In this document: piece after piece, positions 3,802 to 25,055 of the stretch | How the letters are laid out: each line of letters begins with the position of its first letter | Position numbering within the stretch: position 1 is the stretch's first letter | Source: Candidatus Avispirillum faecium | GTDB lineage: Bacteria > Bacillota > Clostridia > Oscillospirales > CAG-272 | NCBI GenBank assembly: GCA_904396155.1 | Contig: CAJFOI010000022.1 | Span: 12,607-76,606 of the forward strand | Direction: 5' to 3' | Length of the DNA: 64,000 nucleotides | Translations under genes and position numbers: made by a program | Notes under the pieces: generated by a model | What the model saw: only the letters and a program-made list of their open reading frames with translations | Told to the model about the DNA's origin: nothing | Database searches by the model: none

Positions 3802-4008
3802 ACAATTCCCCAGTTTTTGCATACGCAAAAACATCCCCCTTGTGTAAGGGGGACCTTCTTGATTCATGCCTCCCCTGTGCAAGGGGAGGTGGCTTGCCGC
3901 AGGCAAGTCGGAGGGGTTGTTTAGATGAAGCATGAAAAAACAATCCCCCTGTCAGCTTCGCTGACATCCCCCTTTACACAAGGGGGACTTTTTTATTTAA
4001 GCCTCTCC
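3802..4008. repeat. REP/BIME-like cluster B
   Basis: 3868-4005 is nearly identical to 2862-2998, including the spacer. Confidence 0.85.
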
Positions 4009-6820: not shown

Positions 6821-7660
6821 ATGGAAAAAAGAATTACCGCCGAGTTGATAGAAGCTTATTCAAAACATCTGATTTTAGAAGAAAAGAGCAAACTTACTAT
6901 AGAAAAATACTTGCGTGATATCATGACTTTCAAAATATTCATCAAAGAAGAGGTTACTAAAGAAAATGTTATTGCGTATAAACACAAACTTATAGAAGAC
7001 AATTACGCTTTGAGAAGCGTTAATTCTATGCTGGCATCAATAAACAGTTTGTTTGATTTTGCAGGATGGAATGAGTGTAAGGTAAAGTCAATAAAAATAC
7101 AGCAGGAGATATTCTGCGCTGAAGAAAAAGAAATCAGCAAAATGGAGTATGAACGGTTGACGGCGGCTGCAAGAAAAAAGCACAATGAACGGTTAGCGCT
7201 GCTGATACAAACGATTTGCGGCACGGGGATCCGTGTGAGCGAGCTTAAATATATAACAATAGAAGCTATTAAAAACGGGTTGGCCCAGGTGAATTGTAAA
7301 GGAAAAAATCGCAGAATTTTTATTGTAAAAGAACTTAGGAAAAAACTTTTATCATATGCTAAAGCTAAAGGTATTATTGCCGGTCCAGTCTTTGTAACAA
7401 GAAAGGGCAAGCCGATGGACCGAACAAATATCTGGAGAGAAATGAAGCAACTATGTAAAGAGGCAAATGTTTCTTCTAAAAAAGTATTTCCTCATAATCT
7501 CCGGCATTTGTTTGCAAGAACATTTTATAAAATAGAAAAGGATATCGCAAAGCTTGCGGATATCCTTGGACACAGCAGTATAAACACAACAAGAATTTAT
7601 ATTGTATCAACAGGTTTTGAACACCAAAAGAGAATGGAAAGTATGAAGTTAATTTTATAA
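6821..7660 (+). CDS. Xer-like tyrosine recombinase (probable invertase)
   Basis: GIRVSEL, HNLRH, LGHSS, TRIY catalytic motifs; AAAGGA RBS before ATG 6821 (alternative start 6797). Confidence 0.9.
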   Translation: MEKRITAELIEAYSKHLILEEKSKLTIEKYLRDIMTFKIFIKEEVTKENVIAYKHKLIEDNYALRSVNSMLASINSLFDFAGWNECKVKSIKIQQEIFCAEEKEISKMEYERLTAAARKKHNERLALLIQTICGTGIRVSELKYITIEAIKNGLAQVNCKGKNRRIFIVKELRKKLLSYAKAKGIIAGPVFVTRKGKPMDRTNIWREMKQLCKEANVSSKKVFPHNLRHLFARTFYKIEKDIAKLADILGHSSINTTRIYIVSTGFEHQKRMESMKLIL

Positions 7661-7672
7661 AAAGACAAATAC

Positions 7673-7937
7673 ACAACATAATATGCATTATGCTGTAAAA
7701 ATAATATTTGATTAATTATTTTCAGTTGATTATACCATAATAGCGATTTCTTTTCAACATAAATTTCCTATATCTATTTTAACCTTATAAGAATAATAAG
7801 AAAAAATGGCATAACAAAAACAACTCACAGCCAGCGATCAAAAAATTTTGAGATATCTCGTCTCTTTTTTATAGCAAAGTTCGTTCGGTGAGCATTCTTA
7901 TTATATTATTTTTACAGCATAATGCATATTATGTTGT
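7673..7937. promoter_or_regulatory. Invertible segment: 35-bp perfect inverted repeats (7673-7707, 7903-7937) enclosing a minus-strand promoter (7729-7757)
   Basis: ACAACATAATATGCATTATGCTGTAAAAATAATAT and its exact reverse complement; TTGAAA-17-TATAAT with an extended -10 TG. Confidence 0.8.
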
Positions 7938-7956
7938 TTTCATGTGGGAGGGAAAT

Positions 7957-8259
7957 TTGGAAAACGAATTATGTAATGTTGATTACAGAAAACATTTAGA
8001 AGAAAATCTGTCTTTAAAAGAGATTACAGCCATAAAGCAAGCTGGAAAATCAGATTTGGAAGATGGTAACTATATTCAGAATGTAAGAAGTTGGTATTCT
8101 CAATTGAAAAGTTACATTGAAAATCATCCCCCGATAAAATATGTTAAAGAGTTGAGGGTATATGAAAATGACAGCAGAATAATTGATAGTGTCGAGTATC
8201 ATTATTATCAAGAAAATGAAGTTATAGATGAAGTTACACTTTGTATTATTAGATTATAG
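7957..8259 (+). CDS. Hypothetical protein (~100 aa)
   Basis: GGGAGGG before TTG 7957; the longer 7888 start would run through the inverted repeat. Confidence 0.5.
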   Translation: MENELCNVDYRKHLEENLSLKEITAIKQAGKSDLEDGNYIQNVRSWYSQLKSYIENHPPIKYVKELRVYENDSRIIDSVEYHYYQENEVIDEVTLCIIRL

Positions 8260-8290
8260 TGTATAATTCGCTCAACATCAAAACCATCGA

Positions 8291-8392
8291 TTATCACAAA
8301 TAGTGATGTAAACGATGTATAAGCAATGCATTGTCCCTAAAATAAAGAGAATATCCCAAATTCTTTATTTTTCGAAATATTGGTTATATAAT
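8291..8392 (+). promoter_or_regulatory. Putative LytTR (AgrA) boxes and -10 of the agrBD promoter
   Basis: TTATCACAAA 8291, TTGTCCCTAA 8331, ATATCCCAAA 8351; TATAAT 8387. Confidence 0.6.
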
Positions 8393-8439
8393 TTATATAA
8401 ATACAGGCTTTTCGACGTAAAGAATTTTGGAGTAATGTT

Positions 8440-9021
8440 ATGTTACATACTTTGTCTAACCGTATGGCTACCAGACTAGCAAATCATGGCATTATAAACT
8501 CGGAAAGCATAGAAGTTTATGTTTATGGACTGGAGCTTGTATTCTCATTTTTCTTTTCGTCTGTGGTAATACTTTTGATTGGCATTCTTTTGTCAAGAGT
8601 ATGGGAAACAATAGTTTTTCTAACGATATTTGTCTTGCTTAGAAGCTTCACTGGAGGTTATCATGCAAAGACTTTTACAAGATGCGCCATCGTAACATTT
8701 ACTACATATATTTCTGTGATTGTTCTTTCCATATTTGTTCGCTACATCCCTTTGTATGTTTATATTATGGGTGTTGTAATAGGATTTTTGATTATAGCAA
8801 TCGTTGCACCTGTTGAACATCCAAATAAGGAAATTCCACAGAACAAAAAAATAAAACATAAGATTACAAGTATGATAATATATCTTGTGTTTGTAACAGC
8901 GGGTTTGTTCTTCTATTATTATAATGTGGCAATAACGAGTTCGGTATTTTTTTCACTTGTTGCTGATATAGTTTTGTTGTTACCAAAAGAAAATATGAAA
9001 GGAGATTTGGGAAGTGGCTAA
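8440..9021 (+). CDS. agrB: Accessory gene regulator B (AIP-processing membrane protein)
   Basis: YVYGLE, LRSFTGGYHA...C, APVEHPNK motifs; polytopic. Confidence 0.92.
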   Translation: MLHTLSNRMATRLANHGIINSESIEVYVYGLELVFSFFFSSVVILLIGILLSRVWETIVFLTIFVLLRSFTGGYHAKTFTRCAIVTFTTYISVIVLSIFVRYIPLYVYIMGVVIGFLIIAIVAPVEHPNKEIPQNKKIKHKITSMIIYLVFVTAGLFFYYYNVAITSSVFFSLVADIVLLLPKENMKGDLGSG

Positions 9022-9136
9022 TTTATTTGAAAAGCTTCTTGCAAACTTGGCGTTTTTCTCGGCTGCGTCTGCTGCCGGAATGGCTTCCTTTTGGAATGTA
9101 TATCAGCCAAAGGAACCGAAAACCATAAGAAAGTAA
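9014..9136 (+). CDS. agrD: Cyclic lactone autoinducer precursor, 40 aa (absent from ORF track)
   Basis: GTG start overlapping the agrB stop; MANLFEKLLANLAFFSAASAAGMASFWNVYQPKEPKTIRK with YQPxxP tail. Confidence 0.88.
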   Translation: MANLFEKLLANLAFFSAASAAGMASFWNVYQPKEPKTIRK

Positions 9137-9259: not shown

Positions 9260-9290
9260 TGTGTTAATAAAAACATAAGGTGTGTGCTTT

Positions 9291-10025
9291 ATGATAAACA
9301 TATTATTTTGTGATGATAATACAGAATTTCTTTCACTTTTGCATGGTTATGTTAAAAAGATAATGAAAAGTCATTTCAGAGATATTTTAATGGATGCAGA
9401 ATTATTTAGTTATGACAATGGAAAAAGTGTGATTTCCTTTGCTAAAAAATCCAGAGTTGACGTGATTTTTCTTGATATTGATATGAAAAATCTTAATGGA
9501 TTTGAAGTTGCAAAGAGACTGATAGAGATAAACGATGAAACGCTGATAGTATTTGTATCGGCGTACGATCAGTTTGTTTACGATGTATTTGAATTTTATC
9601 CGGTTGCCTTTCTCAGGAAGGGAAAAATCTGTGATGAATTGCCGAAGGTATTAAAGAGGATTTCAGAAAAGCTCAACGAGTCCAGTGAAAAACTAACGGT
9701 TTGTACAACGCAAGGGAAGGTTTTACTTAGGGAGAAAGATATTGTTTTTATACATAGCATTGGGAATTATTGTTACTATATGCTGATAAACGGTATACAG
9801 CATTCATGCCGTGATACTTTGTCGAATATAGAGAAATCCATTATGAGTTTAAAGTTTTATAGAGTTCACGCTGCGTATATTGTAAATTTTGATCAAATAC
9901 AAAGTATTGATAAACCGAACTCCGTGATAATGGGCAGAAACAATGTACCTGTGCCCATAGCACAGCGTAGGTGGACAGGCTTTAAGAAAGCATATGCGGA
10001 ATATATATCAAGGAGCTTGATATGA
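9291..10025 (+). CDS. agrA: LytTR response regulator
   Basis: REC (CDD, FLDIDM, FVS) plus LytTR (FYRVHAAYIVN); within the agr locus. Confidence 0.88.
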   Translation: MINILFCDDNTEFLSLLHGYVKKIMKSHFRDILMDAELFSYDNGKSVISFAKKSRVDVIFLDIDMKNLNGFEVAKRLIEINDETLIVFVSAYDQFVYDVFEFYPVAFLRKGKICDELPKVLKRISEKLNESSEKLTVCTTQGKVLLREKDIVFIHSIGNYCYYMLINGIQHSCRDTLSNIEKSIMSLKFYRVHAAYIVNFDQIQSIDKPNSVIMGRNNVPVPIAQRRWTGFKKAYAEYISRSLI

Positions 10026-11329
10026 TTTGTAAGATTGCAGAGATACTGGCAACTTTTTCGGATGTTGCATTTCTAGTGTGGTTTATACCTGCTTTTCTTC
10101 ACTTATCAATTAAAAATGATATTAAGCCGTTGGTGTATATTATACCCGCAGCGATGTTAGCTTTCGAATATTTGGCTGACTACTTCTTTCCGGGTTTCGA
10201 TTTTATATATTTGATAGGCTCTATTGCTTTCACAGTTTTGTTTGCAATTGTGATAAATATCGGAAGAAAGTCAAAATTTAGAGCACTTCTTGCTTCCTGT
10301 ATATTTATAGTTGTCCTAATATTTTCAAGCAGCTTGGTTTATACGATTTTATCGTTTATTATTGACGAAATGGATTTGATCATGCAAGGTGAAACCAGCA
10401 TTCTGAGAGTTATATATCTAACTGTTTGCCTGGCAATAAGGGTTATCATATATAAAGTGATTCTTGCTATATTTTCGTATAACGATCCATTGGATAAGAA
10501 AAATGGCTTGTTTATCTCTTTTTATACTTTGATATCGGCTATTGGTCTGGGGATACTAATGAAGCTTGCTGTAGCAAATGAAGGAAAGAATGAAGCATAT
10601 ATTCTTTTGTTGCTGTTTGTTATTATTGCATCAACTGCTATTTCCTTTTTTATGATATACCAGGTGCAAATATCGCAACGTAGGGAGTATGAATACAAGT
10701 TTATTGCGGAGAGAGCATCTTTTGCCAAAGAAAGTGCAAAGGAAGCAAGCCTTATATGGGAAAACATTCGCAAAGTGAGGCATGAATTAAAGAACCATTT
10801 GTCAATAGTTTCGGCAAAATTAAAATCTGGTGATGTGACAGGGTGCGGTGAATTTATTGATGGTCTAACGGAAACGGTCGATCAATTCGGAAACATTATC
10901 AAAACGGATAACGCCGTTATTGACTATTTGATTAATTCAAAGTTATCCGGACAAGATAAAACAAAGGTGGTTGTATCTGGGTATATTGATAATTACACCG
11001 ATATTGATGATACGGATCTAGTCTGCATTTTGGGAAATGTTATTGATAATGCTGTTGAGGCGGAACGCAATATTGAAGAATCAAAACGAAGAATAGAACT
11101 TCATTTCATTTGTCAGAATCAGAATAGAATTATTGTGTGCAAGAATACAATTGAGACCTCTGTTTTAAAAACAAATCCTAAATTGCAAACAACCAAAAAG
11201 GATCCCCGTATGCATGGATTAGGACACAAAATCATTCAAGAAGTCGCCGAAAAGTATCATGGGTTTGTGGACTATTCTGAATCGGATGATATGTTTTGTG
11301 TGCAGATTATTTTACCTCTAAAACAATAA
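10022..11329 (+). CDS. agrC: AgrC-like membrane histidine kinase
   Basis: Multiple TMs, RHELKNH, GNVIDNAVEA, HGLG. Confidence 0.88.
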   Translation: MICKIAEILATFSDVAFLVWFIPAFLHLSIKNDIKPLVYIIPAAMLAFEYLADYFFPGFDFIYLIGSIAFTVLFAIVINIGRKSKFRALLASCIFIVVLIFSSSLVYTILSFIIDEMDLIMQGETSILRVIYLTVCLAIRVIIYKVILAIFSYNDPLDKKNGLFISFYTLISAIGLGILMKLAVANEGKNEAYILLLLFVIIASTAISFFMIYQVQISQRREYEYKFIAERASFAKESAKEASLIWENIRKVRHELKNHLSIVSAKLKSGDVTGCGEFIDGLTETVDQFGNIIKTDNAVIDYLINSKLSGQDKTKVVVSGYIDNYTDIDDTDLVCILGNVIDNAVEAERNIEESKRRIELHFICQNQNRIIVCKNTIETSVLKTNPKLQTTKKDPRMHGLGHKIIQEVAEKYHGFVDYSESDDMFCVQIILPLKQ

Positions 11330-11443: not shown

Positions 11444-11735
11444 GCAAATAAAGTATTTATTTTGTTAGTTTTTGACAATTAGGAATGAAAGCTAAAGTAT
11501 TCATTCCTGTGCTACTGCAAATAATTTTCCAACTATGAAGAGGTAACGAGATGAGATTAATATTCATAGACTATCTGCCAAGCTTTGAAACCGGTGAGAT
11601 AGATAATATAATTAAGTTTAGAACATAATAGATTTTCTAAGAACAATATAGGAAAATTGAAAAAATTTTATATGCGCGAAACATTGTTTTTTCTACCAAG
11701 CTGTGAGCGTGTTGGGGTCATTAAGGATAAAAATA

Positions 11736-12422
11736 ATGAACAATAATATTGCCAAGCTTTTTATTGTCCCTTTAAACGAATCATTTAATTCCGAATTATA
11801 TGATACATTGTCGTTATCCATAGCAACTAATAAAAAAGCAAAACTTGATAGTTATGAATCTGATATTGACAAAAAGCTCGAACTATATGCTGACATTTTG
11901 GTACGAATATCTATATATCAGGATTTGAATATAGAAAACGGCAATATTGAGTTCGGTACGAATAGCTACGGCAAGCCTTTTTTGATGAATAATCAAGATT
12001 ATCATTTCAATGTATCGCATACACACAATATGATCGCAGTAGCTGTTTCAAATAATTCGGTTGGTGTTGATGTGGAAAAAATAAAAGAAATAGATACGAG
12101 GATTGCAAAACGATTCTTTACCAAACAGGAATTTAGTTATATTGAAAAATTTCAGGATAACAGAAGCGAAAGATTCTTTAAAATATGGACGAAAAAAGAA
12201 GCCTATATAAAGTACACTGGTAAGGGTTTATCGGTTCCGTTGAACTCATTTGATGTGACAACTAGAGAATTATCTGCACATTTTTACACTGTCAGATATG
12301 GTAAATACATAATTAATATGTACGGAGCAGAAGAAAATATTGCTCCTATTACAATCATTATGTCGGAGACAGGACTTATAAATCTGGCAAAAGATTTGCT
12401 GTTATATGCTGTAGTATCCTAA
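11736..12422 (+). CDS. Sfp-type 4'-phosphopantetheinyl transferase
   Basis: YGKP, FNVSH, VGVDVE, WTKKEAYIKYTGKG. Confidence 0.92.
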   Translation: MNNNIAKLFIVPLNESFNSELYDTLSLSIATNKKAKLDSYESDIDKKLELYADILVRISIYQDLNIENGNIEFGTNSYGKPFLMNNQDYHFNVSHTHNMIAVAVSNNSVGVDVEKIKEIDTRIAKRFFTKQEFSYIEKFQDNRSERFFKIWTKKEAYIKYTGKGLSVPLNSFDVTTRELSAHFYTVRYGKYIINMYGAEENIAPITIIMSETGLINLAKDLLLYAVVS

Positions 12423-12726
12423 CTAATTGGATTATGCAAAAAAGATGGAGTCATGAACATTGCAGTTGAACATGTATCGGAGCAAAAGATTACCGGTACC
12501 AATTACAGAATTTAATTGCAATGAAATTATTTGTCGTACTAATACAAATTTATTGGCGTCCGATTTCCTTTGTCTAAAGGTAGTATTCTTTTAATGATGT
12601 GGTGAACTTTTCTGACGGCAAAATGGTTGAAGTAATCGTATTGAATTTAATATGCGCAAAAGTATAAGTGTTAACGTTTTGATAGATAAACATTTAATAG
12701 AGCGCTACTAACATTGGGAGGCAATT

Positions 12727-14511
12727 ATGAAAAGGCTCGTGGCTGCCGTTAAAAATATAGGGTTCATGTTTAAATATTCATGGAATTTTGCGAAAGGGAG
12801 ATATTTTATTGCGATAATAAATATTGTTTTAGATTCGGCGCAGCCGATATTTACCTTGTTAATGCCAAAGTATATTATAGATGAGCTGACGTACGGGCGG
12901 CGATGGAATATAGTTGGTATATATATCGCCGCCTTAGTCGGAATTAATTTGGCATTGAGTGGAATTCGCGAATTTGTAAAATATGCAAGCAGTGAGTCAA
13001 GTTTAAAAAGCCAGTGGAAGTTTAGTATGAAGCACGGTGTGATTTGCGCCACTATGGATTACAGCAAACTGGAAAACAGTTCTGTCAAAGACAAGGTAAA
13101 TCAGGCTATCAATAATACAAGTCCTGTCCAATTTATTGATAGCACCGTTACTGGGTTTGTTACAAACATCATACAGCTTGCAGGATACACTTATATAATT
13201 GCAACATTGCATCCGTTAGTAATACTGTTTATTTTGCTTCTGATTTTTATTGCATCCCTGGTAACCAAAGGCAGAGAAAAGCTTGGCTACGAATATCAGC
13301 CCATATTTTCAAAGTTTTCTCGCAAATTCAATTACCTTCTGAATGCAATGATACGTTTTGATTTTGGGAAAGAGGTCAGGATAAACAAAGCATCAACATG
13401 GCTTGAAAAGAAATTCGCAAACGAGATTGATGATTACATGGACATCTTTAACAAAAGTCAGAAAGGATACTTGAGACTTAGTATATTTGATTCTGTGCTG
13501 GAATTAATACAGACTGTCGTTATGTATGGATATGCAGTTTATAAGACAATAATAGGCAACATTACTGTTGGTAGTTTCAGTGTTTATCTTAGTACCGTCA
13601 CGTTGTTTACGCAAGGGTTCCAAGATCTTGTAAACAGATTTATTTCTTTTGGATATTTGTCAAAGTATGTAGATGATTATAAGGAATGTCTTGATGTGAT
13701 TTCGCCGTCACGGAGCAAATATGTAAATACGGATATTGATATAGAAAACACAGAAAAACATGAGATCATATTTGATCATGTTACATTTAAATACCCCAAT
13801 ACAGACAGGTATGTATTAAAGGATATATCAATAAAAATTGAAGCTGGTAAAAAGTTATCTATCGTTGGATATAACGGAGCGGGCAAGACAACATTTATTA
13901 AACTTATTTGTCGTCTTTACGAGCCTACAGAAGGAAAAATATATTATAACGGCATTGACATATCAACTATAGACTACGATACATATATGAAATTGTTGTC
14001 AGTAGTTTTTCAGGATTTTGCACTGTTTTATTTCACAATTAAGGACAATATTGTTTTTGATGATGACAAAGGCGACTTTGCATTAAATGAGGCAATTGAG
14101 AAAAGTGGGCTGCGCGAAAAAATAGACGGATTAAAAGACGGGTGGAACACTCCGCTCAGTAAGGAATTTTATAATAACGGTATAGAATTTTCTGGAGGTG
14201 AGGGACAAAAACTGGCCTGTGCACGGGCCTATTATAAGGATGCACCTATTATTATATTTGATGAGCCTACCGCATCTTTGGATGCTATTGCAGAAAGCCA
14301 GTTATATGAACGCTTTAACAATATTATTGAAAATAAAACTGCCATTTATATTTCTCACCGACTAGCCTCAGTAAAGTTTTGTGACAGTGTAGCTGTGTTC
14401 GCAGACGGAGAGATTGTTGAATATGGCACTCATGACGAACTGATGGCACTTGACGGAATGTATACGGAAATGTTCAATAAACAGTCTCAATTTTATGTGG
14501 AGGAAAATTGA
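12727..14511 (+). CDS. ABC exporter, fused permease/ATPase
   Basis: TMD plus GYNGAGKT, FSGGE, DEPT. Confidence 0.92.
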   Translation: MKRLVAAVKNIGFMFKYSWNFAKGRYFIAIINIVLDSAQPIFTLLMPKYIIDELTYGRRWNIVGIYIAALVGINLALSGIREFVKYASSESSLKSQWKFSMKHGVICATMDYSKLENSSVKDKVNQAINNTSPVQFIDSTVTGFVTNIIQLAGYTYIIATLHPLVILFILLLIFIASLVTKGREKLGYEYQPIFSKFSRKFNYLLNAMIRFDFGKEVRINKASTWLEKKFANEIDDYMDIFNKSQKGYLRLSIFDSVLELIQTVVMYGYAVYKTIIGNITVGSFSVYLSTVTLFTQGFQDLVNRFISFGYLSKYVDDYKECLDVISPSRSKYVNTDIDIENTEKHEIIFDHVTFKYPNTDRYVLKDISIKIEAGKKLSIVGYNGAGKTTFIKLICRLYEPTEGKIYYNGIDISTIDYDTYMKLLSVVFQDFALFYFTIKDNIVFDDDKGDFALNEAIEKSGLREKIDGLKDGWNTPLSKEFYNNGIEFSGGEGQKLACARAYYKDAPIIIFDEPTASLDAIAESQLYERFNNIIENKTAIYISHRLASVKFCDSVAVFADGEIVEYGTHDELMALDGMYTEMFNKQSQFYVEEN

Positions 14512-16307
14512 TGAAAAATAAAAAACATAAAAGTATATCGGCAAAGCAGCTTTTTTCCAACACTGTATTTGTGTTAAAGTTCCTCTACAAAACAAATAAG
14601 AAGCTGTACCTTATCCGTATACCTGTATTGCTTCTGCAAGTAACTTCAACATTTATTCCAATTATTTTTGTTAGATATATATTAAACGCTGTTACTGTTG
14701 GAAACAACATGCATAACGCAATGATATATGTGATGGCAATGGCGATTTTGACGTTTGTCGTCGGTGTTTTGAACAACATTTTTTCAAGCTGCGATCAAAA
14801 GCAGGTAGCAAGGACACGTTATCTTGCAAATCTGGCGCTGGGAAAATCAGTTATGCGCTTGCAGTATGAGGATTTGGAGCGACCGGAAACAAAAAGTTTT
14901 GTATCGCTTGCACAAGAAGATTCAATGCTGTATATTCTTACACTTGTTTCTAATTTTATTTCGTCAATAATTAGAGTTGCTGGCTTGACTGCCATCGTTT
15001 TGACTTTTCAGCCGCTGATTTTAATTCTCATTGCCGCAGTAATTGCAGTTAAAATGTTTATTGATAAGAAAAAACGGCACAGATTAGAGTTTTACAGAAG
15101 TGTTTGGGCCCCTATAAATAGGAAATCCGCATATATTATTGAATCCATGAAGGAAATCCAGTATGCAAAAGAGATCAGGGTAAATAATTTATCCGGTTGG
15201 CTTTGTAAAAAGCTTCAGGAGCATTTAGATTCTGAGGTATATCCGTTAAAGAAAAAAAGCGAAAAAGAAAACCGGCGTCTGAATATGTTTACTACCATTA
15301 CTGGAATATTGCAGGAGTGTGTTGTGTATTTCATTTTGGCATACCGCGTGATTTTTGCAGGTATGAGTATTGGTGATTTTTCAATGTATATGACCAGTAT
15401 ACAAAACTTTACCGACAGTATAACAGGCGTATTTTGGAACTACTCAAGACTTATCATTATGAGCCGCTTTGCGAGAGAATTCCGTTATTGTATCGAACTT
15501 GAAAAGAACATAAAAAAACAAGGGATCGAACACCTTGAAGATCACGGCAGCTCGGAGGATTTGAAAATCGAATTTCGTAATGTTTCATTTACATATCCCG
15601 ATACGGATAAGGTTATTTTGAAGAATATTTCAATTGCAATAGAGCCACGGCAGTCTTTGTCTATTGTAGGCGTAAACGGCGCTGGAAAGACAACTTTTGT
15701 CAAGTTGCTTTGCCGGCTTTATGAACCGACTGCCGGAGAAATATTGATCAATGGGATCCCGATACAAAACATACCGTTGGATGAATATTACGATTTGCTT
15801 GGTGTGGTTTTTCAGGATTTCAAGTTGTTTTCTTTCTCTGTGCGAGAGAATGTTTGTCTTGATACTGAAGGCGACGATTCAAAACTTACAAAATGTATTG
15901 AAAAAAGCGGGCTTGCAGATAAGATAGGCACCCTGCCAAATAAGTATAATACTATGATAAATAAAGAATTTGATGATTTTGGTATTGAATTCTCAGGCGG
16001 AGAGGGGCAAAAGCTTGCTATAGCAAGGGCACTTTATAAAGAAGCTCCGTTGATAATTCTGGATGAGCCTACATCTGCTCTTGATCCGATTGCGGAATAT
16101 GAGATATACAACCGTTTTCATCAGCTTACGGATGGAAAAAGCACAATATATATTTCCCACCGTCTTTCTTCCACACGATTTACCGACAAGATCGCGGTAT
16201 TTTCTGACGGTGAGCTTTGCGAGTACGGGAATCACGATGAACTGATGCAAATTGAGAATGGCGTATACAAAAACATGTTCGAAATGCAAGCGCAGTATTA
16301 TAGATGA
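14508..16307 (+). CDS. ABC exporter, fused permease/ATPase (probable heterodimer partner)
   Basis: TMD plus GVNGAGKT, FSGGE, DEPT; overlaps the previous gene. Confidence 0.92.
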   Translation: MMKNKKHKSISAKQLFSNTVFVLKFLYKTNKKLYLIRIPVLLLQVTSTFIPIIFVRYILNAVTVGNNMHNAMIYVMAMAILTFVVGVLNNIFSSCDQKQVARTRYLANLALGKSVMRLQYEDLERPETKSFVSLAQEDSMLYILTLVSNFISSIIRVAGLTAIVLTFQPLILILIAAVIAVKMFIDKKKRHRLEFYRSVWAPINRKSAYIIESMKEIQYAKEIRVNNLSGWLCKKLQEHLDSEVYPLKKKSEKENRRLNMFTTITGILQECVVYFILAYRVIFAGMSIGDFSMYMTSIQNFTDSITGVFWNYSRLIIMSRFAREFRYCIELEKNIKKQGIEHLEDHGSSEDLKIEFRNVSFTYPDTDKVILKNISIAIEPRQSLSIVGVNGAGKTTFVKLLCRLYEPTAGEILINGIPIQNIPLDEYYDLLGVVFQDFKLFSFSVRENVCLDTEGDDSKLTKCIEKSGLADKIGTLPNKYNTMINKEFDDFGIEFSGGEGQKLAIARALYKEAPLIILDEPTSALDPIAEYEIYNRFHQLTDGKSTIYISHRLSSTRFTDKIAVFSDGELCEYGNHDELMQIENGVYKNMFEMQAQYYR

Positions 16308-16365
16308 ACGAGTTTCCTGCCGCTTTTTGTAGAGATTGTACATTTATAAAAGGATGGTTTGTATT

Positions 16366-18870
16366 ATGAAGTATAAAGATATTGTGTATAAAATATCAGA
16401 CGAACTTATGGCTCCGGATGCAATGGGAATAGTAGAGGCAGATATTTTTGATTGGTCAACACCTTGTAAATGTTATGTAGAGTCTATTCCTGCAGTTGAA
16501 AAAGCGGTAGAACTATGTACAAATTTTGATTTGGAAGAAAATGTTACCAATATTATAACAGATGAGATCCCACCAGAGGGATTTTGCAAAAGATACGTTT
16601 ACTTTTTTATGATTGAGGTTGCTGAAAACATAGATATTGTTTATTATCCTTACATACCTGGTTCGGAGCATCGTCACTGGCTTAACGGTAAACTCGCTTT
16701 CATAGGAAACACGTTGTCTGTTTATACTATTTCATTAAGAAAAGGACGTAATATTTTTTGTGTTGAAAAATTTACAGAAGGTGTTCCTTTTGTAAGAATT
16801 CAAGTGAAAGATAATGCGTCTCATACTGCACTTCTTTCGTTGACAGAGAACAATTATTGGTATAAACCAAGTAATTTTGAAATAGCACACGATAAGCACA
16901 TTCAAAACGGGGAGCCTTTCCAATTTACTTTAATTCCCCTTGATTTAATAAATTTGAATTATGATTCAATCGTGAATATGACAATTCAATTGGGAGAAGA
17001 GGGCCCAATTTTACATGAAAGAAAAGTGACTTTCAAAGAAACATATAAAATAGATCTTTCATTTATACCCAATATGAGGGAAGACGAATGTGAAAGGTTA
17101 TATGTTTATTTTAGGGTAAAAGACAAAAATGGCAGAATATCAGAAAAATATACCTATTTATTCAGACATGATATTAAACCTGAGTATATTAAAGATTTGA
17201 AAGAGAGAACATCATGTATACTCGAACAAAAGGATGTTCCTGAATTACTGAAAGATGAAATTAGGTTTTATGCGCAGATAATGACGGATCAAATAACATA
17301 TTATTATTTCGGGTATCTTTTAAAGAAAATGCTGAAAGCGGCAGAGGACAATGCATTAAATAATTATTTGTTTAGTCCCGGAGCCCATAATGTATACTAT
17401 TATTCCAATATAAATAATGAATATCACCACTATTATGTCGTACTGCCAAAAGATTTTGATCCTTCGAAAAAATATCCTCTATTGTTGACTTTTCAGTTTG
17501 GCCATGTAAACAATTTCGAGTCTATTCATCACTCATCAAATTTTTCTGCACGTTTTGCGGATCGTGAAGGGGCGATTTATGCAGACATAGGTGGAGACGG
17601 CTGTACCATGGGCAGTTATACAGGAGAAGTATTTCTGCTAGCGGAGATTGAACACTTGCTGAAGAATTTCCCTGTCGACAGAAAAAGGGTTTATGCAATA
17701 GCCAATTGTGCCGGTAATATAGCAGCTCTCAATTTTGTTGAGACATATCCTCATCTGTTTGCGGGAATATATACCAGAAGTGCAGACATTACCAAAAACA
17801 GTATTGGTAATTTGTATAACCTTCACTGTATGTATGTTTTCAGTGGACAAGATGATTGGGTGTTAAAAGATACAAGACTTATAAAAAAGAAATTAAATAA
17901 TGTCGAATTTATCTATTCCGATAAGTATCTTGATAGGTATATAGATCTTATTCTCTCTCAATATACTGTATCTGCAATTGATCATTTAATGACAGGAGAA
18001 CTGGACGAATACCCAGAAAATATTCATTATAGAACTGTAAGAAACCGTGCTCGACGAGCCTACTATATTGAGATTGAATCTATAAAAAGGGGAAAATCTT
18101 TTGCTGAGTTTAGTTCTAAAATTGAAGGACAGAATCTTGTTATTTTGACGAAAAACTGTACAGGGCTAAAAATTACTCTTCCTCCGCAAATAAACAAGGA
18201 GCACTTTACTATAAAAGTAAATGGTAAACTGTTAATCTTTAGCAAATATAAAAAGGATGAGGTATATTTGAAACAACATTCTGGGAGGGGATTTGAACTT
18301 GTTGATAGCTACAGTGAAAATATTTGTTATTACAAAGGAACAGGACTGTTAGATGTTTACTTATCTTCAATGAGAACTGTAAACTGTAATTTGGACGATG
18401 ATAAACTAACGAAAGTGTCAAAGGCTTTTGCCAATCCCACAACCAATACAATAGTAGAAACCAATATTAACTATCCTATTATTTCCATGGAGGAAATTTC
18501 TAATAACCTAAATAATGCACTAACGATTGTTGACAGTAATTGTGAATCAAACGAAACACTTGGTTTTATACGAACAAAACTGCCAATTCAAATGGATAGC
18601 AAAGGATACTATTACAAAGGGAAAACTGTTCAGGGAGACTACTGCATCTTACAGGTTATTGATAATCCTTGGTATAATGACAAAAGTATATTATATATTA
18701 ATACCAATAACAGGGATTTATATGCAAAAAATATTATAACTCGAAAGCTAATGCTTCCTTCGTACAGAAATGGCTATCATCCATATTTAAATGGTGTTGC
18801 GCTACTATTTGATGGATACAAATACTTAACTATAAGAGAATGGACAAATGATTTTGTTGAAATATTATAG
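16366..18870 (+). CDS. Large multidomain alpha/beta-hydrolase-fold protein
   Basis: LPKDFDPSKKYPLLL and VDRKRVYAIANCAG at the nucleophile-elbow position. Confidence 0.6.
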   Translation: MKYKDIVYKISDELMAPDAMGIVEADIFDWSTPCKCYVESIPAVEKAVELCTNFDLEENVTNIITDEIPPEGFCKRYVYFFMIEVAENIDIVYYPYIPGSEHRHWLNGKLAFIGNTLSVYTISLRKGRNIFCVEKFTEGVPFVRIQVKDNASHTALLSLTENNYWYKPSNFEIAHDKHIQNGEPFQFTLIPLDLINLNYDSIVNMTIQLGEEGPILHERKVTFKETYKIDLSFIPNMREDECERLYVYFRVKDKNGRISEKYTYLFRHDIKPEYIKDLKERTSCILEQKDVPELLKDEIRFYAQIMTDQITYYYFGYLLKKMLKAAEDNALNNYLFSPGAHNVYYYSNINNEYHHYYVVLPKDFDPSKKYPLLLTFQFGHVNNFESIHHSSNFSARFADREGAIYADIGGDGCTMGSYTGEVFLLAEIEHLLKNFPVDRKRVYAIANCAGNIAALNFVETYPHLFAGIYTRSADITKNSIGNLYNLHCMYVFSGQDDWVLKDTRLIKKKLNNVEFIYSDKYLDRYIDLILSQYTVSAIDHLMTGELDEYPENIHYRTVRNRARRAYYIEIESIKRGKSFAEFSSKIEGQNLVILTKNCTGLKITLPPQINKEHFTIKVNGKLLIFSKYKKDEVYLKQHSGRGFELVDSYSENICYYKGTGLLDVYLSSMRTVNCNLDDDKLTKVSKAFANPTTNTIVETNINYPIISMEEISNNLNNALTIVDSNCESNETLGFIRTKLPIQMDSKGYYYKGKTVQGDYCILQVIDNPWYNDKSILYINTNNRDLYAKNIITRKLMLPSYRNGYHPYLNGVALLFDGYKYLTIREWTNDFVEIL

Positions 18871-18905
18871 AAATATGAACGCTATAGTGAGCAATGGAGA
18901 TTGAT

Positions 18906-19976
18906 ATGGAGAGTAATAACCTTTTTTTTAGATTATGTGATCCTTTACAAAAGCATATTTATGAGGCGGATTTAATTAGCAATCAGGAGGAATTATTTGG
19001 TCAACTAGTGTTGAACAAAATGGTTGGAATTGCATTTAAAAAGCTTGAATACAGAGCGTTAAATCCTGAGTTGAGAAAGACACTAATTTTGCTAAATGAT
19101 AACTATCTAAACAGAAGTGCGCTGTACAAAAAACAATTAAAATATTTGGTTAATAATATATTAGCAAATGCAGAATTTGACTATTCTTTGTTGAAAGGAT
19201 CATTTTTATCAACTAATTTGTATAAATCTGGGCAAAGGGTTTCCAACGATTTTGATATACTAATCAGTCCGGAAAGCATCTCAAGATTGCAAAAATTATT
19301 AATTGACAATGGTTTTGTACAGGGTGGAGTTAACAGTTCTAACGAAATTGTTCCGGCCACAAGAAGGGAGATACTAGAATCAAGATTGAATTTTGGTCAA
19401 ACAGTTCCATTTGTGAAAATTATCGAAAACTCTCCATTGATAATAGACATAAATTTTTCTCTTGATTTTAAAGCATCAGCCAACAACATCGTTGGAGAAT
19501 TTTTGAATGATATAGTGATTGCAACCTTTGAAAATGTTCGCTTTAAGACTTTAAGTCCGATTAAATTCTTACTTCATCTTGCATGTCACCTATATAAAGA
19601 ATCTACTACATACTACTGGGTTGCACGCCGTAGAGATTTAATGTTGTATAAATTTTGCGATATCTATATGTTTATTAATAAATTTGGAACGATAGAATAT
19701 TTCTCGGATTTAATTGAACAGATTAAAAAATACAATTTTGAAAAGGAATGTTATTATACCTTTGAAAATTCTTCTATAATTTATCCGGCTTTAAATAAAA
19801 TCGATGGTTTTTTGAAAGTGAAAGAATCAATTAAACCTGAAAATTTGGATTTTATGAAACAAATCGTATATCCGCGAGAGAAAAAACTTTTCAAGTATGA
19901 TATGAGTTTCACAGATTGGTTTTTCTGCCCTGATCGCGTTTCTCAATTGGAGGAAATACCATATGAAGAATATTGA
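18906..19976 (+). CDS. Nucleotidyltransferase family protein (NTP_transf_5-like)
   Basis: LLKG..L...LY....RVSNDFDILI and LLHLACHLYKE. Confidence 0.75.
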   Translation: MESNNLFFRLCDPLQKHIYEADLISNQEELFGQLVLNKMVGIAFKKLEYRALNPELRKTLILLNDNYLNRSALYKKQLKYLVNNILANAEFDYSLLKGSFLSTNLYKSGQRVSNDFDILISPESISRLQKLLIDNGFVQGGVNSSNEIVPATRREILESRLNFGQTVPFVKIIENSPLIIDINFSLDFKASANNIVGEFLNDIVIATFENVRFKTLSPIKFLLHLACHLYKESTTYYWVARRRDLMLYKFCDIYMFINKFGTIEYFSDLIEQIKKYNFEKECYYTFENSSIIYPALNKIDGFLKVKESIKPENLDFMKQIVYPREKKLFKYDMSFTDWFFCPDRVSQLEEIPYEEY

Positions 19977-20814
19977 TGTGGACTTGTCACGATTCAATTC
20001 TTTCCAAAGTTTATCTTGTGTCGAAAGCTATTTGCTGTATATTTTGAGTACCAATAATTATGATTATAGGTATCTATATGCACTAAGCTATGTGAGTTTT
20101 TCTGAGATAATGAACTACTTTTTTAACGAAAGGAAACGGTTTGAGTATTATAATGGGGTCCCTAGATTACAACAAATAGCAAGTAAGTATAATATAATTT
20201 TAATAAAAGATTTTGACAAACTAAGTATAAATATAGACTCAAAACATGATTATTACTTATTGAGACTTTGCCCGGAATATATTGAAGAAACTTACGGAGA
20301 AGTAACATGGCGTGACGACCATTATGTGCTATTAGCGAACTACAATGATTCAATGTGGACATACATTAATGATGACCCGCGAGATTGTAGAACATTAAAC
20401 TATAATGAAATGTTAACTGCATATGCAGGCAGTTTGATAAGAATTGATCTGGTAAGTGGCATAACGGATAAAATGAAAGATTTGTTGCTACAAGGATTTC
20501 TTGATAGCATGTCCGAAAATAAAAAAACATTTTCAATACCTTCAGTGGATGATATCATTGCTGCGAGAAATGCGCTGGCAGTTTTACGAATACTCAGACG
20601 AAGGATATACGAATATTGTTTTCAGTTTATCTGCTGCGACTTTATGGTAGATTATTTAAACGAATTGGACAAGCAATTTTCACTGATAGAGTATATGCGG
20701 TTGCGTAATAGAGTCAATTATAGCAAAATTGATAATATGTTTTCGACGTTGCAGCAAAAAGATTCAAAAATTATAGAAGCAATAAATGGAAAGATGTGTG
20801 AAAACTATGGATAA
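19963..20814 (+). CDS. Papain-fold protein, BtrH-N-like (putative ACP-dependent acyltransferase)
   Basis: N-terminal SCVE, later HYVLL and YIND; adjacent to an ACP. Confidence 0.5.
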   Translation: MKNIDVDLSRFNSFQSLSCVESYLLYILSTNNYDYRYLYALSYVSFSEIMNYFFNERKRFEYYNGVPRLQQIASKYNIILIKDFDKLSINIDSKHDYYLLRLCPEYIEETYGEVTWRDDHYVLLANYNDSMWTYINDDPRDCRTLNYNEMLTAYAGSLIRIDLVSGITDKMKDLLLQGFLDSMSENKKTFSIPSVDDIIAARNALAVLRILRRRIYEYCFQFICCDFMVDYLNELDKQFSLIEYMRLRNRVNYSKIDNMFSTLQQKDSKIIEAINGKMCENYG

Positions 20815-21046
20815 AGAATATGAAATTATTAAGGTTATTTCGTCAGTTTCTCCTTTTTCTGACGAAGATATAAGCTTAGAAGATGAGCTTGCTTCAATCG
20901 GAATTGATTCGTTAAAGAAAGTAGAGTTAATAGTAGCTATTGAAGATGCCTTTAGTATAGTCTTTGAGGATGCGGATCTTGATCCCGTACAGTTAGTAAG
21001 TGTATCTGATTTTGTAAAACTGGCTGAAAAGTATTTAAACAGGTAA
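20807..21046 (+). CDS. Acyl carrier protein
   Basis: GIDSL motif; small and acidic. Confidence 0.9.
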   Translation: MDKEYEIIKVISSVSPFSDEDISLEDELASIGIDSLKKVELIVAIEDAFSIVFEDADLDPVQLVSVSDFVKLAEKYLNR

Positions 21047-21052
21047 TTTGAT

Positions 21053-22492
21053 ATGTGGAGCTTTGTAGAAAACTGTTTGAAGCGTTATCCGGAAGCGAAA
21101 ATCATATTTGGTGAACAAACACTTTTTTACCGTGAAATGCAAGATAATGTAGTGCTGCATGGAGAAAATTTGAAATCAGCATTAAAACCAAGGGCGAAAT
21201 GTGTAATTCTATGCGACTCTGGGCTAAATGCTGCCAAGGCTATTCTTGCATGTTGGTACGCTGATATGATCGCAATTCCCCTGTCAAAAAATTACGGTCA
21301 GGATCACTGCAACAAAATTATTAGTTTGACTGATCCGGATATTCTTCTTACAGATAACGATGATTGTTTATATAGGTATACATATAATTTAAAGAAAAAA
21401 ACTTTTTTGGGAAAACGTGACGAAATAAATCTGGAATCGGAATTAAACGATATTGTCCTAATCATGTGCACTTCGGGAACTACAGGGAATCCTAAAGGTG
21501 CGATGATAACCAAAGACGGCTTACAAAAAAATGTTAAGGGAATAGCGCAGTATTTTGATATAAACGATACAGACACTATACTTATTGCAAGACCGCTGTA
21601 TCATTGCGCTGTTTTAACAGGTGAATTTCTTGTCTCGCTTTTTAAAGGAGTTAATATTGCATTTCTTGATGAAGCTTATAATCCAGTAAATGTCATTTCT
21701 TATATGAGTAAATGTAACGCAACAACGATTTGCGGCACACCGACTTTGCTAAATCATATTTCAAGACTTATAAAGCTTAATTATCGAGAAAATTTAATCA
21801 AAAAAATTGCTATAAGCGGTGAGTGTCTCAGTACCAGCATCGCAAAAAACATCAGAGATGTTTTTCCAAATACGGACATATACAGCATATATGGGTTGAC
21901 AGAAGCATCACCCCGTGTCTCATATCTGCCTCCGGCAGATTTTGACAAGTATTCAGAATCTGTGGGTATTCCGATAAACGGAGTAAGAATTAAAATTATT
22001 GATACGCAAACCGGTGTCGATTTGCCGGAAAATAGTCGTGGACTTGTTATGGTTTCATCTCCTAGCTTAATGAAGGGGTATTATAAAGATCAGAGTTTAT
22101 CACAGAAAACTATTGTGAACGGGTGGCTTAATACCCATGATATCGGATATAAAGATGAAAACGGTTACTTATATATTCTTGGACGAGCTGATGATATGAT
22201 CATAAAAGCCGGTATGAATATTTATCCAAGAGAAATTGAAAATGCAATCAATAAATTACCTGAGATTTCAGAATGCTTGGCGTACGGCAAGAAAGGTTTA
22301 TTGGGAGAGGATATTATTATTGATATTGTCTTACCAAAGGAGATCAAAAACATTAGTAAAAAAGACCTAATGGCAAAGATTAAGGAAATTTTACCTTCAT
22401 ACTTAATGCCATCAAGTATAAATATCGTTGATACAATTCCCCGGAATGCTTCGGGAAAGTTGATACGCAGTAAGAGGTTTCATAATGAATAA
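21053..22492 (+). CDS. AMP-binding (acyl-adenylate-forming) ligase
   Basis: TSGTTGNPKG, YGLTE, GRADD, GK motifs. Confidence 0.92.
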   Translation: MWSFVENCLKRYPEAKIIFGEQTLFYREMQDNVVLHGENLKSALKPRAKCVILCDSGLNAAKAILACWYADMIAIPLSKNYGQDHCNKIISLTDPDILLTDNDDCLYRYTYNLKKKTFLGKRDEINLESELNDIVLIMCTSGTTGNPKGAMITKDGLQKNVKGIAQYFDINDTDTILIARPLYHCAVLTGEFLVSLFKGVNIAFLDEAYNPVNVISYMSKCNATTICGTPTLLNHISRLIKLNYRENLIKKIAISGECLSTSIAKNIRDVFPNTDIYSIYGLTEASPRVSYLPPADFDKYSESVGIPINGVRIKIIDTQTGVDLPENSRGLVMVSSPSLMKGYYKDQSLSQKTIVNGWLNTHDIGYKDENGYLYILGRADDMIIKAGMNIYPREIENAINKLPEISECLAYGKKGLLGEDIIIDIVLPKEIKNISKKDLMAKIKEILPSYLMPSSINIVDTIPRNASGKLIRSKRFHNE

Positions 22493-22934
22493 TGTAAATA
22501 TGAATCCAAACAATTTAAAGCTTTAGACGAGTATAATAATTTTATATAAAAATTAGACGGATTTGTGCTTGTGAAGGGATCTTCCAGATCAATTATTACT
22601 GTAGTGAAAAAAGGTTCTCCTATTTTATAAAGATGAAAGATAGAGGGAAAACAAAAGAAAATAAATTTCTAAAATAGCATCTGTAACGATAGTAGTAAAA
22701 TAGTTGAATCTTTGCTGTTAAAAGTTATCTTTAATAATTATACGAAAAAACTATGTTGTTGATGAAATGTAATACCTTTTGATATTAGTTATTTCTTGGG
22801 TAAGGATTTATAAGAACTATAGTCGGAGTTAAATAAAGAAATAATCCAATCTTATTTACAAATCAATAAATTTAACAATTACCCCAATGGAAAGTGTAGT
22901 ATTTAGTTAAAGTATTGAAAGAAATGGTACCGAT

Positions 22935-23186
22935 ATGATGAAATATGAAAAGAGGATTCGTGAAATTATTGCAGCAAATTTAAAGACAAAAATAGATATT
23001 GATGATTATGATGCAAATGGAGATTTGCGTAATATTGGGATGAATTCTATTTTATTTGTATCAATAGTTGTTGCTATAGAAAATGAATTTGGGATTAATT
23101 TTCCAGATGACAAACTGCTTATTTCTGAAGCTGGAACAATTTTATTGCTTAATCAAATTTTGGAAAGTATTATTGTTAATTATTAA
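22935..23186 (+). CDS. Acyl carrier protein (NS variant)
   Basis: GMNSILFVSIVVAIENEFGI. Confidence 0.8.
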   Translation: MMKYEKRIREIIAANLKTKIDIDDYDANGDLRNIGMNSILFVSIVVAIENEFGINFPDDKLLISEAGTILLLNQILESIIVNY

Positions 23187-23310
23187 AAAATGTTTACCTA
23201 CCTTTTAACTCCTTAAATTCTATCAAAACGTTATATTTATCTTTTTAATTTTTTATAATAATGTAGATATTGTTAAAACTATTGTATTTTAAAATAAAGG
23301 ATTAATTTAA

Positions 23311-24042
23311 ATGGAATTTACTTATTCGAATTATAAAATATTATTAAAAAGCATTATTGATACTGGAAAATATATGGATTATTCAGTGGTTAATAATAGT
23401 ATTCCTAACTTTATTGTTTTACGTCATGATATAGAATTTTCATTGAAAAAAGCTTTAATAATGTCAGAAATAGAGAAACAATTTGGAATAGTTTCTAGCT
23501 ATTTTATCCAAATACAAAATGATTTTTACAATGCTTTATCTAACGAAAGCATAAAGATAATTCAACAAATAAATGCCAACAACCACTATATTGGATTGCA
23601 TTATCATTTGAGCAACAAAAATTCTTTTGATTTTTCGGAGATAAGTAATGAAATACAAAGACAGTGTGGAGTTTTGTCTCAGTTTTTGAATATACCTATT
23701 ACCCGATTTTCTATTCATAAACCCACTGAACAAATTTTAAAAAATACAATCAAAATAAAAAATATAATTAATACCTATGATCCGCTATATTTTACTTATA
23801 TTCCTAATTTTGAAACCAAATTTGAAAATGAGATCAATGTTAAATATTATGCAGATTCTTCTATAAAATGGAAGTATGGGATACCTACTAAAAAAAATTT
23901 TGAAAAATTTAATCGAATTCAAATATTAATACATCCATATTCTTGGTATTCTAGTAAAAAAACTTATGATGAAATATCAGAACTTACAATTGCTGATAGG
24001 GTAAAAGAAATAATTACAATTTATGAAAAAGAACAAAAATAA
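23311..24042 (+). CDS. Polysaccharide-deacetylase-like (CE4/NodB-fold) protein
   Basis: LRHDIE, IGLH, H.P and LIHP motifs. Confidence 0.65.
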   Translation: MEFTYSNYKILLKSIIDTGKYMDYSVVNNSIPNFIVLRHDIEFSLKKALIMSEIEKQFGIVSSYFIQIQNDFYNALSNESIKIIQQINANNHYIGLHYHLSNKNSFDFSEISNEIQRQCGVLSQFLNIPITRFSIHKPTEQILKNTIKIKNIINTYDPLYFTYIPNFETKFENEINVKYYADSSIKWKYGIPTKKNFEKFNRIQILIHPYSWYSSKKTYDEISELTIADRVKEIITIYEKEQK

Positions 24043-24974: not shown

Positions 24975-25055
24975 TGCTTTATAATATATTTAAAAATTTT
25001 AATTGGGCAGCATCATCCTTATATTTTTATATGACTTATGTAAAAGGTGTAATAT

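Follow-up and report, generated by a model that had tools for sequence, protein, structure and literature searches.

Promoters that can be inverted are a known route to heritable heterogeneity and are mostly tied to surface structures and defence genes. The fimS switch of Escherichia coli is a short promoter segment that is bounded by inverted repeats and flipped by FimB and FimE, which are encoded beside it, and inverted tyrosine-recombinase sites in general yield inversion. Promoters of this kind (invertons) have reportedly been catalogued in gut metagenomes in the PhaseFinder study. In Clostridioides difficile, according to the available text of the reports, RecV flips the flagellar switch, and the genome contains several sequences that invert (PMC7446863; 10.1101/690230; PMC9286219). 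Gut inverton surveys, likewise in their available portions, describe many invertons in gut Firmicutes with cargo that consists largely of surface and defence genes (PMC11602134, DeepInverton; PMC10028968). The dif sites of E. coli, B. subtilis, and Frankia are given in the accessible part of one source as CATAA or GATAA and TTATG around six bases (PMC3025954). Here, a stretch of 64,000 nucleotides (hereafter the window, by whose positions features are located) from Candidatus Avispirillum faecium is examined (GenBank assembly GCA_904396155.1, contig CAJFOI010000022.1, positions 12,607 to 76,606 of the forward strand), in which the gene of a Xer-like tyrosine recombinase is followed by a pair of dif-like inverted repeats that enclose a putative promoter and lie ahead of an agr-type quorum-sensing locus. 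This locus is likely an inverton that works or worked until recently.

The recombinase gene, the presumed invertase of the adjacent switch, occupies positions 6821-7660 of the + strand and encodes 279 amino acids. Its stop at 7660 is followed, after a gap of 12 bp, by the left, recombinase-proximal putative recombination site (7673-7707, 35 nt), and the right, cargo-proximal putative site (7903-7937) is its perfect complement, such that the arms are 100% complementary with 195 nt between them. The presumably invertible spacer (7708-7902, 195 bp, 27% G+C) contains no open reading frame (ORF) of at least 40 aa wholly within it, and 19 bases separate the right repeat from the start of a small ORF. 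These arms are the sole perfect inverted repeat of at least 20 nt within 1 kb in the whole 64-kb window, the other three inverted repeats found being 88% REP-like palindromes, and a chance repeat was rejected on account of the 35 perfect bases. In the genome itself (a 1.95-Mb assembly of 51 contigs, 85% complete), the 25-nt repeat core is found only at these two places, with up to 3 mismatches allowed. A scan of the spacer identified a putative promoter, TTGAAA-17-TGnTATAAT, on the minus strand (7729-7757; -35 at 7757-7752, -10 at 7734-7729) that matches 11 of 12 positions and carries the TG extension. Its -10 ends 21 nt from the spacer exit, and the promoter points at the 3' end of the recombinase gene, for which reason the window is called OFF. 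Mirroring across the repeats (x to 15610-x) would place the -10 at 7876-7881. A preliminary description of this DNA had already set out the repeat pair with its spacer and its distance from the recombinase stop, the TG-extended TTGAAA-17-TATAAT on the minus strand, the flipped position of the -10, and the OFF state; all coordinates were confirmed, the promoter was recovered by the scan, the mirror calculation bore out the flipped -10, and the OFF state follows from the direction of the promoter.

The recombinase carries the Pfam domains Phage_integrase (5.9e-26) and, N-terminally, the SAM-like Phage_int_SAM_1 (1.3e-08), and its start at 6821 agrees with the N-termini of homologues. In an alignment of 22 homologues, the residues R138, H225, R228, H251, and Y260 do not vary, nor do K160 and K162, which are candidates for the catalytic lysine. 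Because the catalytic residues are invariant across homologues, the enzyme should be active. Among NCBIfam models, the top matches are XerA, XerC, and XerD at 110-131 bits, against cut-offs of 220-335; neither the XerC cut-off (112.3 versus 335.15 bits) nor the XerD cut-off (110.8 versus 329.6 bits) is reached. Models of fim-type invertases score 28-31 bits (cut-offs of about 221-222). An integron reading was rejected because the integron-integrase (IntI) model TIGR02249, at 53.9 bits, falls far under its cut-off of 265. The nearest solved structures are Xer enzymes, with the XerC-like chain 4a8e (1.9e-21) closest. The earlier label of Xer-like recombinase is therefore fair, in that Xer models score highest, though far under their cut-offs; to call the enzyme a Xer is not. 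An unrelated tyrosine recombinase gene is located at about 44430-45287 of the window (G000:C22:57036-57893) and scores 66.8 bits to the XerD model. Additionally, GC-rich REP-like palindromes (CCCCTT...AAGGGG type) lie upstream of the switch recombinase at 2801-2851, 2962-2987, 3827-3852, and 3969-3994, and similar palindromes lie near the homologous recombinase in related loci L006 (916-1281) and L010.

The switch is not peculiar to this genome. A DNA search matched the recombinase region in 23 of 61 related genomes (the own genome included), and a protein search yielded 17 loci in species genomes of Oscillospiraceae, Lachnospiraceae, Candidatus Avispirillum, Brotonthovivens, and Clostridium sp. 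Cultured carriers include Brotonthovivens ammoniilytica Sanger_109, with the two loci L033 and L034, and Clostridium sp. 1001271st1 H5, with L032. In metagenome contigs, a profile search identified at least 590 relatives among 598 matched stretches, of which 80 were kept for locus analysis. In 78 of the 114 related loci, the recombinase stop is followed by a repeat pair with the core motif, at a distance that mostly does not exceed about 120 nt and reaches 263 nt at most, and the spacers measure 161-472 nt, mostly 200-280. The best sigma-70-type match scores at least 11 in 44 of 75 distinct spacers, compared with 80 of 1500 shuffles, and the -10 lies 20-55 nt from the spacer exit that it faces in 63 of the 75, compared with 226 of 1500 shuffles. 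Upstream of the promoter, 42 of 56 spacers contain a hairpin of -12 kcal/mol or below, 24 of those with z <= -2. By a simple rule, the promoter points toward the recombinase in 43 of the 78 loci, away from it in 15, and is unclear in 20, it being noted that three locus pairs in this count are identical duplicates. Three members of the family are present in the own genome, every one of which has a separate repeat pair and a centre that is not shared with the others: one is located before agr, and the other two are located before genes for secreted proteins on contigs C12 and C48.

The family also permits the recombination sites to be compared. The core of the right repeat is TTACAGCATAA-TGCATA-TTATGTTG, the centre of which is not palindromic, and the left repeat holds ACAACATAA-TATGCA-TTATGCTGT, which fits the family consensus A-CATAA-T-NNNN-A-TTATG-T. 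Over 71 distinct sites, with positions fixed by the motif filter not counted as evidence, the consensus extends to A-CATAA-T-NNNN-A-TTATG-T-(T)GTA, the unfiltered flanking positions being conserved as A (70/71), T (65/71), A (66/71), and T (70/71). The arms are conserved and positions 6-9 vary between loci: there are 48 distinct 6-nt centres among the 71 sites, none of them palindromic, and the 16-nt core is identical in both copies of a locus in 71 of 76 cases. As a sequence pattern, arms that are conserved, an asymmetric centre that varies freely between loci yet matches within a locus, and copies in inverted orientation correspond to what a tyrosine recombinase requires for inverting, and only inverting. 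One 16-nt core, with the centre TCGGCA, recurs in ten loci of several lineages (L004, L014, L024, L043, L055, L059, L065, L066, L067, and L098), always as exactly two inverted copies within the flanking sequence analysed. Some relatives have three sites (L007 at 2167-2252, L011 at 2282-2365, L018 at 2067-2117, L083, and L100), with one repeat tandemly duplicated 34-65 nt away, which would permit two alternative inversions.

The resemblance of the core to E. coli dif, with an asymmetric 6-bp centre, had also been proposed, and it holds: by a hand count, window positions 7911-7938 match dif at 19 of 28 positions, covering part of each arm and five of the six centre bases, and the dif sequence used agrees with the published one (PMC3025954). 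The layout is of the dif type, with two binding arms around a 6-bp centre (CATAA...TTATG). A true dif site was rejected, given two inverted copies and a recombinase that scores under the Xer cut-offs. Rather than one site per replicon, there are two inverted copies here and two more loci with a recombinase and a repeat pair in the same genome.

Both orientations are found among homologous loci, namely in the window versus L040, in L066 versus L067, and in L041 versus L061, L065, and L075, in keeping with the inversion that the preliminary description had proposed. The closest comparison with the window is L040, a syntenic metagenome locus in which the order is recombinase, repeats, small ORF, agrB, agrD, regulator, and the start of the kinase. 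The flanks are collinear with those of the window, at nucleotide identities of 71% for the recombinase and 67% for the segment from the small ORF through agrB and agrD to the regulator. The spacers are homologous only in reverse (133/195 matches, score 51.5); the same-orientation score is 14.5, and 200 shuffles gave 16.4 +/- 3.6 with a maximum of 30.5. The L040 promoter (TTGAAA-17-TGaTACAAT) faces the small ORF and that of the window faces away from it, so L040 is called ON and the window OFF. The L040 spacer contains a strong hairpin with A and T runs on both sides. Similarly, in L066 and L067 the left 3.4 kb are 95.5% identical up to the left repeat and the repeats plus spacer are 93.5% identical in reverse, and the repeats plus spacer of L041 are 96, 94, and 87% identical in reverse to those of L065, L061, and L075, respectively. 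Of the spacer pairs that could be aligned over at least 80 nt, 52 share one orientation, and in 11 one spacer is the reverse of the other; the recombinase flank is collinear throughout. These pairs are not independent of each other.

Several observations weigh against the reading of the locus as an inverton. First, 36 of the 114 related loci lack a repeat pair by the method used: 13 of these have less than 400 nt after the gene, 3 have pairs that fail the motif filter, and the remaining 20 have enough room and no pair found by the perfect-seed method. Second, the DNA past the right repeat is unrelated in L066/L067 and in L041/L065, such that these pairs show reversal relative to the recombinase and not in an otherwise identical locus. 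Third, promoter-like matches are common in the AT-rich DNA of the window (21, compared with 15.2 +/- 4.2 in shuffles). Fourth, the spacer of the window lacks the strong hairpin present in 42 of 56 relatives. Where most relatives have it, there is a weak A-run, hairpin, and T-run (7848-7871; -5.8 kcal/mol, z 0.2), and the best 50-nt fold of the spacer (-6.5, z +1.0) is no better than shuffles, on which ground this hairpin was rejected as a terminator. Insulation is consequently doubtful at this locus, and read-through from the recombinase gene may blur the OFF state. Fifth, agrB has a boxed promoter of its own, described below, so the switch is not necessarily required by the operon. Finally, there is no RNA run among the 20 public runs that hold the stretch (from 9 studies, mostly gut or chicken-gut metagenomes by label), and there is no read-level evidence of two orientations in the species. 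In Logan contigs from four of these runs, the pieces comprise 7521-7702, the 35-mer 7673-7707 alone, 7678-7932, and 7908 onward. They end inside the repeats because 31-mers cannot span a 35-bp repeat, and orientation cannot be read from them. A search of a metagenome contig collection for the exact 25-nt repeat core gave no match.

Some of these observations would also be expected of a fossil, that is, a switch that was formerly invertible and is now fixed in one orientation in this species: the assembly shows one orientation only, the contigs of the four runs give no read-level test of it, and the spacer hairpin has decayed relative to the family. Against a fossil stands what this locus retains. 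The repeats are perfect over 35 nt, in comparison with 16-33 nt in most relatives, and the recombinase frame of 279 codons is open with all catalytic residues intact. Moreover, in the strain of run X3, which has diverged by about 4%, 33 nt of the repeat are unchanged, in contrast to 11 substitutions and 3 indels in a 256-nt piece that covers the spacer, a difference that would fit selection on the sites. Fixation is thus regarded as improbable, and an inverton that works, or did so recently, remains by far the preferred reading.

In the mechanism proposed for this inverton, the recombinase (6821-7660) would bind both dif-like sites and exchange strands across the identical asymmetric centre (TATGCA / TGCATA), and the 195-bp segment would flip because the sites are inverted. 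Flipping by this enzyme presumably continues in the species. In the present, OFF orientation, the strong spacer promoter would fire back into the 3' end of the recombinase gene. In the flipped, ON orientation, transcription would start near 7888, run through the right repeat into the small ORF (7957-8259), and probably continue into agrB-agrD, no terminator being seen. The switch would most likely put the small ORF under heritable, stochastic ON/OFF control and most likely add an AgrA-independent input with the potential to prime autoinduction. Antisense transcription of the recombinase gene might, in addition, stabilize the OFF state, the sole hint of this being that, of 58 loci in which the orientation is clear, 43 face the recombinase. 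A small terminator-like hairpin on the minus strand (7546-7558), inside the recombinase gene, lies some 165 nt past the OFF-state start and might terminate a short antisense transcript. Because a motif that is conserved in the protein overlaps with it, the hairpin may also be due to chance.

The direct target of the flipped promoter would be the small ORF (7957-8259, + strand, 100 aa), which has a TTG start behind GGGAGGG. Its product is 44% identical to the product of the ORF at the equivalent place in L040, 70% identical to another database protein, P0002, and 28-31% identical to the products of ORFs beside agrBD in two genomes from another family of the same order. Relatives are few: a search of 5.8 billion proteins returned two, one of which is possibly the window's own, and a genome search matched 3 of 401 genomes, the own genome included. 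In L127, the homologue directly precedes agrB-agrD-regulator, as in the window, and in L125 it is divergent from agrBD; no repeat pair of the recombinase type was found in L125, L126, or L127. Pfam and NCBIfam returned no family match for the product and the Atlas no usable match. An AF2 model (pLDDT 86.8) predicts two helices and a three-stranded sheet, for which the PDB holds no match at E <= 0.001. Judged from this conservation, the small ORF is a genuine gene that is linked to agr. In another locus of Avispirillum, L004 (identical to L024), the switch precedes a small ORF without annotation, beside a convergent agrB-kinase-regulator set.

Behind the small ORF follow agrB (8440-9021; Pfam AgrB, 8.4e-41), agrD, which encodes a 40-aa autoinducer precursor (9014-9136; NCBIfam TIGR04223, 37.8 bits against a cut-off of 19), the gene of an AgrA-like LytTR response regulator (9282-10025; Pfam LytTR and Response_reg), and that of an AgrC-like GHKL histidine kinase (10022-11329; Pfam HATPase_c_5, 7.3e-23), all on the + strand. 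Thus AgrB, AgrD, a LytTR regulator, and a GHKL kinase, which together make up an agr-type quorum-sensing locus, are all present. The preliminary description had the flipped promoter firing into ORF 7957 and towards agrBD with no clear terminator in between. The first part stands, with the small ORF as the direct target, and a search of the + strand from 7937 to 8440 gave no terminator-like site. The second part amounts to read-through at most, because agrB has its own promoter, a LytTR-box-like element on the + strand (8334-8392) in which two TCCC boxes 20 nt apart are followed by TATAAT.

This promoter is central to an alternative that we consider entirely conceivable, if somewhat short of probable: the switch would be real and govern the small ORF only, and agrBD, the regulator, and the kinase would run from their own AgrA-type promoter irrespective of orientation. 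A two-box layout is what is expected for a LytTR activator at AgrA-type promoters, and by this general analogy the boxed promoters would be of the LytTR-activator type. The pattern TCCC-N16/17-TCCC-N22-32-TAWAAT, which was chosen post hoc, has 1 match in the 64 kb versus 0.07 expected; for a single box, TRTCCCWAAA, there is no enrichment in the window (2 versus 0.97 expected). In the switch-less loci L126 and L127, two TCCC boxes about 20 nt apart and an extended -10 are located ahead of agrB and likewise ahead of the small ORF. The window retains the boxed promoter of agrB alone; the promoter region of the small ORF, and only that, has been lost, its place being taken by the unit of recombinase and switch. 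Further, a 14-nt inverted repeat (8354-8367 / 8418-8431) could pair the ribosome-binding region of agrB with upstream RNA (8300-8440 folds at -28.8 kcal/mol, z -2.84). This stable fold might limit translation of agrB from long transcripts; transcripts from agrB's own promoter would be without its upstream arm. Against a switch confined to the small ORF stand the lack of a terminator-like site on the + strand between 8259 and 8440, which leaves agrBD within reach of read-through, and the order recombinase-switch-ORF-agrBD, which is kept in L040 at 67-71% nucleotide identity. Whether read-through is of importance for signalling is judged to be about evenly balanced.

The agr genes offer two further observations. 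The AgrD precursor (9014-9136) is without any cysteine, its mature region reading ...ASFWNVYQPKEP..., and so has no Cys for a thiolactone; the homologue in L040 (2414-2536) has one Cys, further upstream. The composition of the precursor suggests an autoinducer that is a lactone or is differently built. Downstream of agr, window positions 11703-25000 encode a 4'-phosphopantetheinyl transferase, two ABC exporters, an NTP_transf_5 protein, an AMP-binding enzyme, a formyltransferase, and the products of several large ORFs without a Pfam match. By its gene content, this region may be a biosynthetic cluster under agr control.

In the family as a whole, the genes located downstream of the switch are very diverse. 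In 67 loci they encode collagen-repeat proteins (6), SPFH proteins (Band_7_1; 5), ResIII/DEAD helicases (4), HTH_26 proteins (3), signal peptidases (3), DNA methylases (2), M23 peptidases (2), cohesin (2), VWA (2), and BspA-type LRR (1) proteins, many of them with signal peptides, a spectrum of surface and defence functions that is typical of genes under phase variation. The unit itself moves between contexts. L041 and L065 are alike only across the recombinase plus switch, and the similarity of L066 and L067 ends exactly at the outer edge of the right repeat; similarity that is confined to the unit, or that stops at the edge of the right repeat, indicates that recombinase and switch relocate as a module. 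This mobility in unrelated contexts, together with the likeness of the repeat core to dif and the presence on contig C35 of another gene that scores better as XerD-like (209.6 bits, the best candidate of this sort in the genome), lends some credit to the idea that the repeats are a dif-like module boundary for the host's chromosomal Xer, as in pdif modules, or the end of a mobile element, and not a regulatory switch run by the adjacent recombinase. On such a view it would be hard to see why the repeat pair accompanies a recombinase gene of its own in 78 loci, why each of three paralogues in one genome has its own centre, and why the segment between the repeats contains no gene and only a positioned promoter. 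This is the least probable of the explanations considered, and very improbable in absolute terms.

On the reading as an inverton, a broader proposal can be put forward, if only tentatively. In gut Clostridia, a self-contained and relocatable phase-variation cassette of about 1.3 kb, which comprises a Xer-like recombinase, two dif-like sites whose crossover centre is specific to the locus, and in most cases a hairpin plus a promoter, would front very different genes. Here it would have replaced the AgrA-dependent promoter of the first gene of the agr operon, such that signalling, or at least its priming and a companion gene, would be switched heritably in a subpopulation, as programmed bet-hedging and not as loss of agr by mutation. 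In contrast to the surface and defence genes to which invertible promoters are mostly tied, the promoter in this case fronts a peptide quorum-sensing operon in two species, and the switch occupies the place of the autoinducer-dependent promoter of switch-less relatives. If the switch works, some cells would express an agr-linked gene, and perhaps seed the autoinducer, regardless of cell density, and this would provide a testable link between phase variation and communication. The frequency of the family in gut metagenomes (at least 590 contig matches), its three copies in this 2-Mb genome, the clear site consensus, and the cultured carriers make it open to experiment, and the cassette could serve as a compact, orthogonal inversion module.

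The mechanism proposed is classical promoter inversion by a tyrosine recombinase, for which fimS and the RecV switches are the nearest known examples. The fimS switch shares with this locus a promoter segment between inverted repeats and an adjoining tyrosine recombinase gene upstream of it; given that position, orientation can feed back on the recombinase, as in fimS. It differs from the present locus in several respects, which here comprise 35-bp repeats with a dif-like 5-6-5 core and longer conserved arms, a single recombinase, Xer-like, in place of two, and an agr-linked operon in place of fimbriae as cargo. The RecV switches of C. difficile, including cmrRST, are likewise found in Clostridia, where a tyrosine recombinase flips promoter or regulatory segments, one of them with a signal-transduction cargo (PMC7446863; 10.1101/690230; PMC9286219). 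By the descriptions available in these sources, the difference is that each switch of the present family has its own adjacent recombinase and its own crossover centre, with three in one genome. With dimer resolution by Xer at dif, the locus has in common that Xer models score highest, that the nearest structures are those of Xer enzymes, and that the site has the CATAA-N6-TTATG layout, as given in the accessible part of one account (PMC3025954). It departs from Xer/dif in having two inverted copies 230 bp apart beside a gene instead of one terminus site, in scores that lie far under the Xer cut-offs, and in a proposed outcome of inversion, not resolution. The pdif modules of Acinetobacter, as far as the available texts describe them, are also discrete relocatable units bounded by pairs of dif-like sites (PMC12907356; PMC11705084), but they carry genes and use the host XerCD. 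In the present unit only a promoter is bounded, no gene cargo of the pdif type being found in 7708-7902, and the recombinase is part of the unit. The repeat-flanked promoters of the gut inverton surveys, abundant in gut Firmicutes and metagenomes, are likewise comparable to it. The available portions of these surveys do not name quorum-sensing cargo, a Xer-like recombinase, or a dif-like core, and their supplementary tables may list such loci (PMC11602134; PMC10028968). The literature searches returned no paper in which an inverton is linked to agr or quorum-sensing cargo, to Xer-like recombinases, or to dif-like sites. The kind of switch is thus already known, the family of recombinase and sites is apparently uncharacterized in the literature searched, and the cargo, an agr-type signalling operon with its companion gene, is unusual.

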